The position numbers are program-made. Positions 39,001 through 42,000 of a DNA stretch of 64,000 nucleotides are shown here, piece after piece. Position 1 is the first letter of the stretch. Every line of letters starts with the position of its first letter. Origin of the DNA: Actinobacteria bacterium UBA7524 (GTDB taxonomy: Bacteria; Actinomycetota; Coriobacteriia; Anaerosomatales; UBA912); assembly GCA_002478275.1 (NCBI GenBank), contig DLMY01000016.1, positions 1-64,000 of the forward strand, given 5' to 3'.

Positions 39001-42000
39001 ACACAGTCGTACCGTGATGCCTGGTTCGTGGGTTGGGCGGAAGACGTGTCGTGTGCCGTGTGGGTCGGCCACCGCGAAGGTCAGGTCCCGATGACGAAGG
39101 TCCACGGCATCCAGGTCACCGGTGGCAGCTTCCCCGCAGAGATATGGAGCCGCTTCATGGCCGAGGCCCTCTCCCACCAGCGAGCACCCATCATGCCGGG
39201 CCAGCCGGCGCCGACGTCGCCCATAGAAGGGGACGGGGCGGATACAGATCCCCAGGCCGGATCGCCTCCTGTGCTCGTCAGCGTGTGCCCGGATTCCATG
39301 CAACTGGCGAGCAAGAGATGTCCGAACCCGGTCAACATGCAGCTGGAGCCCGATCTTGTTCCCAAGAACGCCTGTGAGAGGCACTGAGTCGACCGTGGAG
39401 GAGAGCGTGGACCACTACCGGACCCTGCAGATCGACCGTTCCGCTGAACCCGAGGTCGTGGAGAAGGCGTACAAGGTCTTGTGTCTCAAGTATCACCCGG
39501 ACGTGAGTGCACCGGAACGGCGCTCTGAGGCGAACGCACGGATGCAGAGGATCAACGCGGCCTACGCAGTACTGCGCGATCCCGTCCGCCGGCGGCGTTA
39601 CGACCGCACGCTCAGCGGTGCCGGTGCGTCCCCACAGTCGGCGTGGGACGTCTTCATGAACAAGGGTCTCCTCGGCATGTTGCTCGATAAGGTGGCACCG
39701 GACTGGGAGTAGGGGGCCCCGATCCCGTGACAGCTCGGGTCAGGGGCGCTTTCTCGGCAACATCCGGGCCGCCAGACGCCCCAGCGCAGGCACGTGAAGT
39801 GTGATCGCCTGGGGAGGGCACAGCTCCTGGCAGCAGTAGCATCTGATGCATGCACTCCGGTCGAATGCAGGGCCGTCTGAACCCAGATCGACGGCCCCGA
39901 CGGGGCAGACCTTCCTGCAAGTCCCGCAGAGGGTGCACGCGACCGCACCGGTGAATTCAGGGCGGGCGAGCAGGTGTGCATTCGCCGCGTCGTTCAACCA
40001 GCTCGGCATGCGGCTCATGGGGTCCGAGGCCGGAAGGCGGAAGTCCGGGGGTGCGAGCTCACGCCATGGCACGCCCAGGACATCGATCTCATCTGCGGTC
40101 GTAGGGACCAGCCCCCGGTTCGCAGCAGCACGGTTCGTGTAGACCTCCATCGGGTCGAACCCGGCCATCGCGGATGCGACCACGTCGAGTGCTGCGCAGT
40201 CGGCCGAGGCCATCAGTGCGCCTATCTTGCGCGGATGGCCTCCTGCCGGGCCGTCCCCTTCCATGCCTACGACGGCATCCATGACGGCCAGCGCAGGCCT
40301 GCAGACCCGCATCAGGTCCACCAGCATCTCGGCGAACTCGTTTCGGCCCGGTACCTTGAGGTGGAAGGTCGCTTTCTCCAGGCCGGGAATGCACCCGAAA
40401 AGGTTCTTGACCGCGCCCGTGAACATCATGAACCCGTGCGTCTTGAACTTGGGGACGCTGATCAAGACGTCGGCCTGGGCCACCGCGCGCCCTATGGTGA
40501 ACGCCCCGAACAGCGCGGGATCGTGCGTGGTGACGCGAACGGGGTCGTCGTCGAAGAGCAGCAGCGGGACGTTCTCCTCGGCACATACCTTCGCGATGCC
40601 GCTCGTCTGGTGGATCTGCCGAACCCACGCCGGGGTGTTGGGTCCACCGGGGCTGTCGCCGACGCTCACTTCGCCGCCCGCCGAGCGGACCGCGTGGATC
40701 AGCGCCCGCACCACTTCCGGATGAGTGGTGACGGCCCTGTCGGGCTCGGCCTTCGACAGCAGATTGACCTTGAGGAGCACGTTCTGTCCCGGAGAGACGA
40801 ACGCGCCGAACCCGCCCAGCGGTTCAAGAGCGTTCTCAAGCGCCGAGGAGACATCTTCTGTCCGGTACGAGGAGCACTCAGCCACAGAGACGCGATGGTC
40901 GGAGGGCGGTGTCACGATTCGGGTTCTAGAGGGCGCTTCGTGTGAGCCGGTTACCGACGGCCTTCAAGATGGCCGGGTAGGAGACGGCCCCGTCGTACAG
41001 CGGGACCCCATCGACCACGGTGACGGGATAGAGCAGGCCGCGCGCCTCGATCTCCTGGACGATGCGGGCGTTCGTCTCCCTGACCCCGGCATCGCTGACA
41101 TCGTGATAGATGATGCGCGCTGCGTCACCGAAGCGACGATCCATCTCCTCACCGATGATGGCGGTGATCTCCTCCGGAGACCACGATGGACCTCAACCCC
41201 CGCTGTAGCAGGAGGTGTAGGTGGGAAGATCGAACACCTCGACTGTGATCGGCGAGTGCTCTGTCATGCTTTGCTCCTTCATGCCGGACGAACAGCTCCG
41301 CCTGCGCAGACGCGCATGCACACGGCGCAACCCTTACACAGGGACTCGATCACCCTGTAACCCCGTGACCCCGGATACGGACCGCCTTCTACAGGTACGA
41401 TAGCACCCGTCGGACACACTCGTCTCGACGGACAGGTGTCCGAACGGTCGCAGGCGGCGTTGTCGATCGTTACAAGCATGTCGCGATTCGCTTTCCCGAA
41501 GGGGCTGCAGGCGTGGATAGTATACCCCATGGGGTATACCGATGCAACATACGATTGTAGTTAATGCCGCAGCAGACTGATACTATTGTCAAGGATCGGC
41601 CTACCGAAGGGGAGGGCAACGTGCGCATCAAGATGACGGACACCAACCGGAAGCTGCTCGTCACCATGTTGGCGGCCGGCATCGGCATCGGCATCGCCTT
41701 TCCCCTGATAGCCGGATTGTTCGTCGTTCCCAAGAGCCCACAGCTGTGGGTGGTCTTCTGGATACTGTGTCTTGCTGCGGGGATCGGCCTTGGCCTGCTT
41801 TGTGTATTCGTCTCGGTGCGAACGGGGGACGGATTGTTCCGCGAAGTGTTGCGAGAGGCGCAGAAGCGCTACTCGATCACCGTGGACATGAGCGGTTCCG
41901 CTGACGACATGCAGAAGGAAGTCCTTTCGTTGCTCGACAGGCTGAACTCCCTTCTCGAGAGTGCCACGTCGATCAACAACGACATGCGCGCGCTGACCTC

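Follow-up and report, generated by a model that had tools for sequence, protein, structure and literature searches.

The window analysed here, a stretch of 64,000 nucleotides from the genome bin of the actinobacterium UBA7524, contains on its reverse strand a small gene with an in-frame UGA codon, and the question raised by this locus is whether the UGA is a true stop or is read as selenocysteine (Sec), and what kind of protein would be made in the second case. The survey's finding was a gene of 113 codons, starting at an ATG with GAAGGAG 6 nt upstream and carrying the UGA at codon 25; all these positions were re-read from the sequence and are correct. By comparison of sequences, the gene very probably encodes a selenoprotein with Sec at codon 25, a reading to which we give a probability of about 0.88. 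The conserved UGA, the Cys homologues, the frozen hairpin and the thioredoxin fold, on which this reading was first proposed, each survived a larger test.

A reading frame across the UGA

The piece annotated in the window is an ORF of 72 amino acids (40926-41144, table-11 ORF list), which corresponds only to the 3' part of the 113-codon gene. The same truncation was found in public sources, where gene callers everywhere give only a 3' piece of 69-87 amino acids, named 'DUF1462 family protein' or 'disulfide oxidoreductase YuzD'. The GAAGGAG of the full gene overlaps the TGA stop codon (41281-41279) of the ferredoxin-like gene located upstream.

Table 1. Coordinates of the putative selenoprotein gene, its sequence elements and other genes of the window
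Feature	Position	Strand	Description
fdhA-type gene with TGA	584-1477		Site ARIUHS
DUF362 gene	39740..40915	-	DUF362 domain (Pfam E=9.9e-59) and two 4Fe-4S motifs; variable operon member
Full gene of the putative selenoprotein	40926..41267	-	113 codons and TAG stop; predicted thioredoxin-fold protein, DUF1462/YuzD-ArsD type
TAG ending the frame	40928-40926	-	Read from sequence
SECIS-like hairpin	41165..41183	-	8-bp stem UGGUCUCC/GGAGAUCA, loop GGA, 9 nt after the UGA
In-frame UGA, codon 25	41193..41195	-	Predicted Sec codon; TGA column 93/93, Cys in relatives
Cys20 codon	41208..41210	-	Conserved partner 5 residues before the predicted Sec (C-x4-U); 85-row alignment
ATG start	41267-41265	-	Read from sequence
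Ribosome-binding site GAAGGAG	41274..41280	-	6 nt before the ATG; read from sequence
Ferredoxin-like gene, co-transcribed	41279..41530	-	7 invariant Cys, C-x5-C-x5-CP ... CxxCxxCxxxC (alignment A2)
Chemoreceptor gene, divergent	41564..42775	+	MCP signalling domain (Pfam MCPsignal E=6.7e-40)

We investigated the conservation of the UGA in the order Anaerosomatales (Coriobacteriia). A match to the gene was found in 96 of 101 genomes, and all of the matches contained an in-frame TGA, one in 95 genomes and two in one genome, which extends the earlier count of 43 of 46 genomes; in a 97th genome (G033), a contig end cuts the gene just after the TGA. The homologous proteins of the 96 genomes are 49-71% identical to the window protein. 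The DNA comparison was made with 94 of the 96 matched genes, and TGA occupied the codon-25 column in 93 of 93 aligned genes. The 85-row protein alignment (A1) showed that the U column is invariant and that Cys20, the residue described before as a conserved Cys five residues upstream of U, is conserved at 90% at least. The mean entropy at codon positions 1, 2 and 3 was 0.78, 0.63 and 1.33 bits upstream of the UGA and 0.78, 0.48 and 1.31 bits downstream of it; since the pattern is alike on either side, both sides are coding and belong to one frame.

The existence of Cys-bearing homologues, also part of the initial proposal, was found again on a larger scale: the best 150 of 342 profile matches include 95 full-length relatives, of which 74 have Cys at the U column. 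The homologues P0004 (56% identical) and P0122 both carry Cys at this column, and a Sec form encoded at a metagenome locus (L210) is 71% identical to P0122. When the Cys-clade alignment (A3) was used to search 301 genomes of the phylum, only the Sec genes were found once more.

The downstream hairpin and the Sec machinery

In bacteria, a SECIS element is a hairpin located shortly after the UGA with a G in its apical loop. The sequence TGGTCTCC-GGA-GGAGATCA, of 19 nt, begins with its first base 9 nt past the TGA of the window gene. This 19-mer is identical in 79 of 94 genes of the order, compared to 20 of 21 sequences in the first comparison, and it is frozen at synonymous sites as was then claimed: the codons used in the hairpin are TCT (90/90), CCG (89/92), GAG (88/88), GAG (93/93) and ATC (90/90), with an entropy of 0.08, 0.06 and 0.04 bits at positions 1, 2 and 3. 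At three other conserved Ser columns TCT was found in only 2/83, 8/89 and 2/92 genes, and the codon entropy at all 37 other conserved degenerate columns was 0.59-2.17 bits. Each stem pair is a standard base pair in 95-98 of 98 sequences, with pair 4-16 broken in three of the 98 and pair 1-19 in one, and double compensatory changes were observed at pairs 1-19, 2-18 and 8-12 in the distant clades f58 and f49. At the second position of the loop, all 98 sequences have G. In the same genome, fdhA and selD exhibit 8-bp hairpins of similar geometry, 8-10 nt after the UGA and with GG in the loop. For the 54 nt counted from the UGA, the folding energy gave a z of -0.71, with 49 of 200 shuffled sequences folding equally well, and for the 22-nt hairpin stretch a z of -2.72, with 2 of 200; folding energy alone does not distinguish this hairpin. 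No Rfam family matched the hairpin, the scan of 40800-41400 giving chance-level matches only.

The main objection raised with the original proposal was that neither tRNA-Sec nor SelA had been found in the bin, which is 83% complete. This absence holds, and it extends to selB, for which nothing was found above the cut-off; the best tRNA-Sec candidate of the bin, called a tRNA-Ser by ARAGORN, reached 43.4 bits where 47 are required. The objection is nevertheless largely answered, because contig C37 of the bin ends inside a Sec-type selD, the fragment of which has U at the known site, because selD (with TGA), selA, selB and tRNA-Sec are located within about 7 kb of each other in five of five relatives, and because the bin has two Sec-type fdhA genes in which TGA occupies the canonical site, one on contig C23 and the other in this window. 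SelA was found in 92 of the 101 genomes of the order. The 99% complete genome G007 has no SelA, no tRNA-Sec and no copy of the gene studied here, yet it retains the ferredoxin-like gene, and in G034 (96% complete) the TGA gene is present but neither SelA nor tRNA-Sec was found.

Two other readings of the UGA have to be weighed against decoding as Sec. If the UGA were a true stop, the locus would consist of a 24-codon leader peptide followed by a separate gene of 72-88 amino acids, or of a decaying pseudogene, and the hairpin would be a regulatory element or an attenuator. This would agree with the short 3' pieces of all public gene calls and with a bin devoid of selA, selB and tRNA-Sec. However, the stretch of 16 codons that separates the UGA from the called ATG shows conservation at the protein level, its third positions being free outside the hairpin, where 4-6 codons are used for each of GGN, CCN and TCN; strand 1 of the modelled fold comes from the N-terminal 24 codons, and full-length Cys forms exist. 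Decay is contradicted by the TGA retained in 96 genomes at the protein identities given above, and we regard a true stop as extremely improbable. Translation of the UGA as another residue, through reassignment of the code (to Trp or Gly) or near-cognate readthrough (giving Trp or Cys), is scarcely more probable. Trp does occur at the U column, in 5 of the 95 database relatives and in P0003, within the same flanking motif (GG-W-GP), but these forms would most simply be calls made under a TGA=Trp table, and the residue found in natural relatives at this column is Cys, not Trp. TGA is also the terminal stop of 47 of the 93 genes and of the upstream ferredoxin-like gene; used at the end of about half of these genes, UGA remains a stop codon in these organisms. 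Moreover, a change of code needs no selected hairpin of SECIS type.

Fold and family of the encoded protein

The AlphaFold2 model of the protein (pLDDT 90.8) has the topology b-a-b-a-b-b-a. Foldseek ranked first 1XG8, the S. aureus protein SA0798 of the YuzD/DUF1462 family (PF07315), with E=4.7e-5 and TM 0.63/0.65, followed by thioredoxins and, at rank 10, by the ArsD structure 3KTB. The family profile searched against PDB sequences also gave 1XG8 as best match (E=8.2e-7), and in the ESM Atlas the Cys homologue P0122 was nearest to YuzD clusters. The predicted fold is thus thioredoxin-like, nearest to YuzD/DUF1462 (1XG8) and ArsD, and this part of the survey's finding stood. The other part, which put U-G-P-S at the place of the C-G-P-C of thioredoxin, is off in detail: in thioredoxin proper the CxxC is located at the N-terminus of helix 1, whereas in the model U25 of the C-x4-U motif precedes this helix by six residues and is not at its N-cap. 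It lies in a long loop modelled with low confidence, the active-site loop, where pLDDT averages 62 over residues 21-30. The two motifs were compared at the level of topology only.

The window protein scored 22.8 bits with the Pfam DUF1462 model, under the cut-off of 25, and its relatives scored higher, with 31.2 bits for the L051 orthologue, 30.4 for P0004 and 32.9 for P0122. The model touches the family, and the previous statement that no Pfam model does so had to be abandoned. As reported before, no NCBIfam model matched the window protein at E<=1, nor did the thioredoxin models of Pfam at the same threshold; for five relatives, NCBIfam at E<=1 gave only a chance FolE match (E=0.18) and a weak ArsD match of P0004. 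The family is probably a Sec branch of the known, uncharacterised DUF1462/YuzD and not a family without any model. The motifs differ, 1XG8 having C-x2-C where the window family has C-x4-U, and a gap of two residues is needed in the alignment. YuzD is not known to have an established function. The literature searched contained no mention of DUF1462 in a Sec form.

The listed thioredoxin-fold selenoproteins (review Table 1) are Sec-thioredoxin, Sec-glutaredoxin, Sec.1 and Sec.2 of PF13192, the UGSC-containing protein, the VPGUxxT family and others. The window family resembles them in its small size, the Sec at the active-site region, the Cys homologues and a bacterial SECIS right after the UGA, but their motifs are UxxC, CxxU, CxU, UxC, UGSC and VPGU, compared to C-x4-U-G-P-S here. 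None of the Pfam and NCBIfam accessions of this table matched the window protein or five relatives at E<=1. The window family is not included in the 2026 inventory of 119 selenoprotein families, nor in the accessible part of the text and supplement of the BSepDB paper, which within these sources agrees with the family being unlisted in selenoproteome surveys. Cultured members of the order are Anaerosoma tenue and Parvivirga hydrogeniphila, and Table S1 of BSepDB has Parvivirga under Coriobacteriia. The protein is very probably a Sec protein, kept throughout one order of anaerobic actinobacteria, and it would add a family that these lists lack. Since both the inventories and the annotation models miss the family, NCBI and JGI hold hundreds of truncated fragments named 'DUF1462/YuzD' or 'hypothetical'; such records would be put right by a family model that has U in the proper column.

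Gene neighbourhood and possible function

Of 34 loci of the order, 30 have the ferredoxin-like gene directly upstream of the selenoprotein gene; none of the seven loci of Sec clades outside the order has it. All matches of the ferredoxin-like gene to Pfam Fer4 families were below the cut-offs, and alignments of its homologues suggest that the Met at 41479 is its true start. The chemoreceptor gene flanks the pair formed by these two genes in 12 of 13 scanned loci and is a conserved neighbour, by proximity alone. The DUF362 gene was considered as an obligate partner and rejected, as no more than 9 of the 34 loci of the order have it adjacent; it is adjacent in the metagenome locus L210 too. Scans of 39300-42000 detected neither a promoter nor a terminator.

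The locus very probably encodes a cytoplasmic thioredoxin-fold selenoprotein of 113 residues belonging to the DUF1462/YuzD-ArsD superfamily. Its UGA would be decoded by the usual bacterial route, in which SelB with Sec-tRNA binds the 8-bp hairpin 9 nt downstream. In the model, Sec25 and Cys20 would be part of a flexible loop leading from strand 1 to helix 1, at the places that two of ArsD's three metalloid-binding cysteines occupy. The recoding signals, the modelled fold and the correspondence between Sec and Cys are the parts of this account that the data show, and the functional part is inferred from here on. The pair of Sec25 and Cys20 would cycle between selenolate/thiolate and selenenylsulfide, with electrons passing between it and the 7-Cys ferredoxin-like protein, whose gene lies 11 nt upstream of the selenoprotein gene and is probably coupled to it in translation. 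These anaerobes might possess a ferredoxin-linked seleno-thiol redox relay made up of both proteins. A function as selenol/thiol redox partner of the 7-Cys ferredoxin is suggested by gene order only and is proposed tentatively, at somewhat less than even odds; the label 'redox motif', given to C-x4-U-G-P-S from the outset, is likewise putative.

The main alternative to this redox function is that the protein acts as an ArsD-like chaperone for soft metals or metalloids, with Sec25 and Cys20 binding As(III), Sb(III), Hg, Cu(I) or selenium species and passing them to a partner. ArsD (PF06953, NF033727; 3KTB) has the thioredoxin-like fold in common with the window protein, and P0122 aligned with 3KTB with E=4.1e-5, CC...C onto CC...C, the Sec column (the Cys before G-P) falling on the third ArsD Cys and Cys20 on the second, which we take to be Cys18 and Cys13, respectively, in the numbering of E. 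coli R773. The Cys homologues P0004 and P0122 gave sub-threshold scores with both ArsD models, of 23-24.7 bits against a cut-off of 27 for Pfam and of 21.3 against 90 for NCBIfam chaperon_ArsD. The long, low-confidence loop of the model is what would be expected of a flexible binding loop, and the genes of two distant Sec homologues (L055 and L056) have arsA on one side and an Acr3-type (SBF) transporter gene on the other. On the other hand, the window protein itself reached only 13.7 bits against 27 with Pfam ArsD, and the selenoprotein keeps only the second and third places of the Cys triad; position 19, the place of the first, varies and is not among the columns conserved at 90% or more, so two ligands would be left and not three. 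ArsD is encoded beside arsA in the ars operon, whereas neither the neighbourhood in the window nor the 13 loci scanned in the order contained an ArsA, Acr3 or ArsR gene; the conserved partner there is an Fe-S protein, the ferredoxin-like one. We consider the chaperone function doubtful, with odds of about one in four, for the selenoprotein of this order.

The redox function can be extended into a more specific picture, in which the selenoprotein and the 7-Cys ferredoxin form a two-protein machine and, in addition, the Sec homologues of arsA-x-acr3 operons are Sec-containing stand-ins for ArsD. One [4Fe-4S] site of the ferredoxin would have only three Cys ligands, and its open iron would act on the Cys20-Sec25 selenenylsulfide, or Sec25 would ligate this iron, a chemistry of the ferredoxin:thioredoxin-reductase or heterodisulfide-reductase type that would be split over two small proteins. 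If the stand-ins were real, selenium would be used for chaperoning arsenic. Both parts holding together is unlikely.

In the sampled Anaerosomatales the selenoprotein gene, present in 96-97 of the 101 genomes, is about as widespread as SelA, and it may thus be among the reasons for which the order has retained its costly Sec machinery. The replacement of Cys by Sec would also give a first functional lead for YuzD/DUF1462, as it marks a catalytic or ligand residue: the YuzD/DUF1462 Cys at the Sec place corresponds to a metalloid-binding Cys of ArsD. In the sister clades this loop is linked with arsenic efflux, through the ars operon in which one of them is encoded, and with an enzyme of tRNA-thiolation type, through the ThiI-like PP-loop protein beside another.

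Gene structure and probable translation through the UGA codon

Re-reading of the sequence reproduced the gene layout proposed in the survey's finding: an ATG start, a ribosome-binding site, a UGA at codon 25, a hairpin 9 nt further on and a mis-called 72-aa product. GAAGGAG, the ribosome-binding site 6 nt 5' of the ATG, shares bases with the TGA that ends the gene upstream. The table-11 ORF list held the 72-aa piece only, and the same fragment is found in the public protein collection (P0002, 100% identity, 64% coverage). We put the probability that the gene truly encodes a selenoprotein, and so far escaped notice as one, at about 0.9.

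Positions of the selenoprotein gene, its signals and related features
Feature	Position	Strand	Remark
Selenoprotein gene	41267 (ATG) to 40928-40926 (TAG)	minus	113 codons, read from the sequence
In-frame TGA, codon 25	41195-41193	minus	sole TGA within the frame
Hairpin TGGTCTCC-GGA-GGAGATCA	41183-41165	minus	begins nine nt 3' of the TGA
72-aa ORF	40926-41144
Ferredoxin-like gene	41279-41530	minus	directly upstream of the selenoprotein gene; about 65 aa
fdhA-type gene (formate-dehydrogenase-alpha-type molybdopterin enzyme)	584-1477	plus	frame runs on downstream; TGA 1187-1189 at the canonical site
Multihaem cytochrome gene	42955-45096	plus	713 aa
selD N-terminus	C37:55908-56099 (locus L018 1444-1698)		cut by contig end; TGA at the known Sec/Cys site
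Sec homologues in genomes G164, G422	L055 1420-1788; L056 1423-1785
Sec clade	L053 1486-1827; L054 1489-1818; L058 1492-1809
Ferredoxin-like gene, genome G007	L216 1483-1671		shortened

When the read-through protein was used in a six-frame search, matches came from 96 of the 101 sampled genomes of the order Anaerosomatales (70 of the 73 of high quality). The UGA was said by the survey to be kept in the order's homologues, and an in-frame TGA was indeed present in 96/96 best matches, one in 95 and two in the remaining match. Five genomes gave no match. Genome G033 has the ferredoxin-like gene, and of the selenoprotein gene it has codons 1 to 24 followed by the TGA, directly after which the contig ends; its non-match is an assembly break. 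In genome G007 (99% complete), the homologue was not found even by family profile search, nor was SelA, nor a tRNA-Sec among the 150 of 317 candidates scored; the ferredoxin-like gene is retained, with a DnaJ-like gene directly after it on the opposite strand. This pattern fits loss of the selenoprotein gene along with the Sec trait.

The genes of 94 of the 96 genomes were fetched and 93 of them aligned codon by codon, the 94th (L111) being added later. In this alignment, conserved residues 5' of the UGA were encoded by varied synonymous codons (Val 4, Pro 4, Ser 6, the last including both AGY and TCN), as were the three residues directly 3' of it (Gly 4, Pro 4, Ser 6). Before the UGA, 15 codons had mean entropies of 0.78/0.63/1.33 bits at codon positions 1/2/3, and codons +10 to +16 had 0.78/0.48/1.31 bits, which shows that the sequence on either side is coding and in one frame. 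Strand 1 of the fold predicted by AlphaFold2 comes from the first 24 codons. In these organisms UGA still serves as a stop: TGA terminates 47 of the 93 selenoprotein genes and also the window's upstream gene.

The SECIS-like hairpin and the selenocysteine machinery

The hairpin is frozen at synonymous sites, as had been claimed. The entropy of its six codons was only 0.08/0.06/0.04 bits by codon position, with TCT used in 90/90, CCG in 89/92, GAG in 88/88, GAG in 93/93 and ATC in 90/90 of the aligned genes, and 79 of 94 genes shared one and the same 19-mer. Each of the other 37 conserved degenerate columns had between 0.59 and 2.17 bits, and TCT was the rarest Ser codon outside the hairpin (2/83, 8/89, 2/92). 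Pairing was followed across 94 sequences of the order plus 4 that belong to other families of its phylum. Standard pairs at the eight successive stem positions numbered 97, 98, 98, 95, 98, 98, 98 and 98 out of 98, and the second loop base was G in all 98. Single stem changes within the order were mostly wobble-compatible (U-G at 1-19, 4-16, 5-15 and 7-13; G-C at 3-17). Double compensatory changes were found in clades f58 and f49 (C-G to U-A at 8-12, U-A to C-G at 1-19, G-C to U-A at 2-18); C-G to U-A at 8-12 is seen in the hairpins of L053, L054 and L058. The distant Sec homologues of L055-L057 have other hairpins at the equivalent place, which in L055 and L056 are strong and directly follow the UGA. 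The folding energy, weak evidence by itself, gave z = -0.71 (54 nt) and -2.72 (22-nt stretch), and an Rfam scan of the hairpin region returned no match.

The fdhA-type gene is a second selenoprotein gene within the window, with the site HQARIUHSS and a twin-arginine-like leader (SRRDFLK). Its hairpin (loop GGUCU) and that of the bin's selD fragment are both of 8 bp with GG in the loop, starting 10 and 8 nt past the UGA, respectively. Another fdhA-type gene with an in-frame TGA lies on contig C23 of the bin.

In the 83% complete bin, the reported absence of selA and tRNA-Sec held (the best tRNA candidates were tRNA-Ser and tRNA-Leu), and no selB scored above cut-off; the fdhA-type TGA genes and the selD fragment, which reads SKAGUAAKWGPG, are nevertheless present. 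In 5/5 relatives a stretch of about 7 kb contains selD (1 TGA) followed by selA, selB and tRNA-Sec, and contig C37 ends inside selD, so that the bin's missing genes probably fall in an assembly gap. SelA was found in 92 of the 101 genomes of the order. Genome G034 (96% complete) holds a TGA-containing selenoprotein gene, and searches of it found neither SelA nor tRNA-Sec, which may reflect a binning gap.

Fold, cysteine homologues and family

AlphaFold2, run with an 85-row alignment, predicted a thioredoxin fold (pLDDT 90.8, pTM 0.83) with the topology b1(7-13), a1(31-49), b2(50-56), a2(60-76), b3, b4, a3. Together with the Foldseek matches, this topology agrees with the fold assigned by the survey. 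Cys20 and Sec25 are placed in the b1-a1 loop, where residues 21-30 have a mean pLDDT of 62. The solved S. aureus YuzD-like protein 1XG8 ranked first in Foldseek, followed by thioredoxins, with ArsD (3KTB) tenth. The family profile matched 1XG8 at E=8.2e-7, a gap being needed between its C-x2-C and the family's C-x4-U. The Cys homologue P0122 matched 3KTB at E=4.1e-5 with its CC...C on that of ArsD. By this alignment, Sec25 is the counterpart of the third cysteine of ArsD, and Cys20 that of its second.

The survey had reported no Pfam or NCBIfam model; an NCBIfam scan of the window protein gave nothing, but Pfam DUF1462 scored 22.8 bits (cut-off 25) on it and 30-33 bits on L051, P0004 and P0122. 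Scores against Pfam ArsD stayed below cut-off. The family fits best as a Sec-containing branch within DUF1462/YuzD, which shares its thioredoxin-like superfamily with ArsD.

A family profile from 85 members matched 342 proteins among 1.84 billion representatives (E<=0.001). From the best 150, P0207 (3897 aa) was left out, 149 were aligned and 95 contained the N-terminal strand. As the survey noted, Cys homologues exist: the Sec25 column in these 95 held Cys in 74, a gap in 11, Trp in 5, Tyr in 3, Asn in 1 and Ser in 1. With 56% identity, P0004 (121 aa) has Cys at this column within CCSSGCCGP; P0003 has W, which a gene call under TGA=Trp would be expected to give. Most of the shorter relatives among the 149 start just past the column, as would truncated Sec genes. 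The Sec form of metagenome locus L210 shows 71% identity with P0122, a Cys form, and has the same hairpin. In P0207 the profile matches 15 separate stretches, the best at profile positions 11-48 (active-site loop and helix 1).

The protein belongs to a known kind, the thioredoxin-fold selenoproteins with a standard bacterial SECIS; the DUF1462/YuzD branch is new as a selenoprotein. In the parts available to us, neither Table 1 of a May 2026 review (119 prokaryotic selenoprotein families; no matching motif either) nor the deep-Sep and BSepDB papers has DUF1462, YuzD or ArsD, and the available part of the BSepDB supplement has none of these, PF07315 or PF06953. Full-text searches of the open literature found nothing relevant on selenocysteine with YuzD or Anaerosomatales, nor on selenoprotein with Coriobacteriia, nor, judged by titles and abstracts, on selenoprotein with ArsD or on DUF1462.

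Gene neighbourhood and possible function

In the order, 30 of 34 loci have the ferredoxin-like gene directly upstream, and the two genes are probably translationally coupled. The ferredoxin-like product has seven invariant Cys, not eight (C-x5-C-x5-CP ... CxxCxxCxxxC), C-x5-C-x5-CP replacing CxxCxxCxxxCP as the first motif, and one predicted cluster site thus appears to have just three Cys ligands. Of 13 loci scanned, 12 have a divergent chemoreceptor gene beside the two genes, and the downstream DUF362 gene (two 4Fe-4S motifs) adjoins in only 9 of 34.

Beyond the recoding signals, the fold and the Sec/Cys correspondence documented here, we infer that Sec25 and Cys20 form a selenol/thiol pair within a mobile loop. 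Because of the tight pairing with an Fe-S protein gene, we tentatively favour an electron-transfer role linked to this neighbour, at somewhat less than even odds. The boldest reading, pure conjecture, builds on the seven-Cys pattern and the three-ligand cluster site. The rival reading, less likely than electron transfer, is a chaperone for metals or metalloids; it draws on the relationship to ArsD and on the ars-operon cousins of L055 and L056, where the Sec homologue (GAGG-U-GPVCEPADCGP) lies at the place usual for ArsD, with arsA (two ArsA_ATPase ORFs) on one side and a gene for an Acr3-type SBF transporter on the other. No ars genes were seen around the 13 loci of the order that were scanned. 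With this protein, a family already known but uncharacterised gains a Sec form of putative redox function.

Sec homologues outside the order, in other families of the phylum, are 22-29% identical and have different neighbours. The clade of L053, L054 and L058 (C-S-G-G-U-GPSWSLEE) lies directly 3' of a ThiI/tRNA_Me_trans/NFACT-R_2 (PP-loop) gene, with a divergent M50 peptidase gene on the other side; the homologues of L057 and L059 adjoin DUF1015 and lgt, respectively. In the window, the multihaem cytochrome gene adjoins the chemoreceptor gene and its product matches NapC/NirT, MtrC/MtrF domain II/IV and cytochrome c7/c3; a NapC-type gene is likewise close to the ferredoxin-like/selenoprotein pair in L021.
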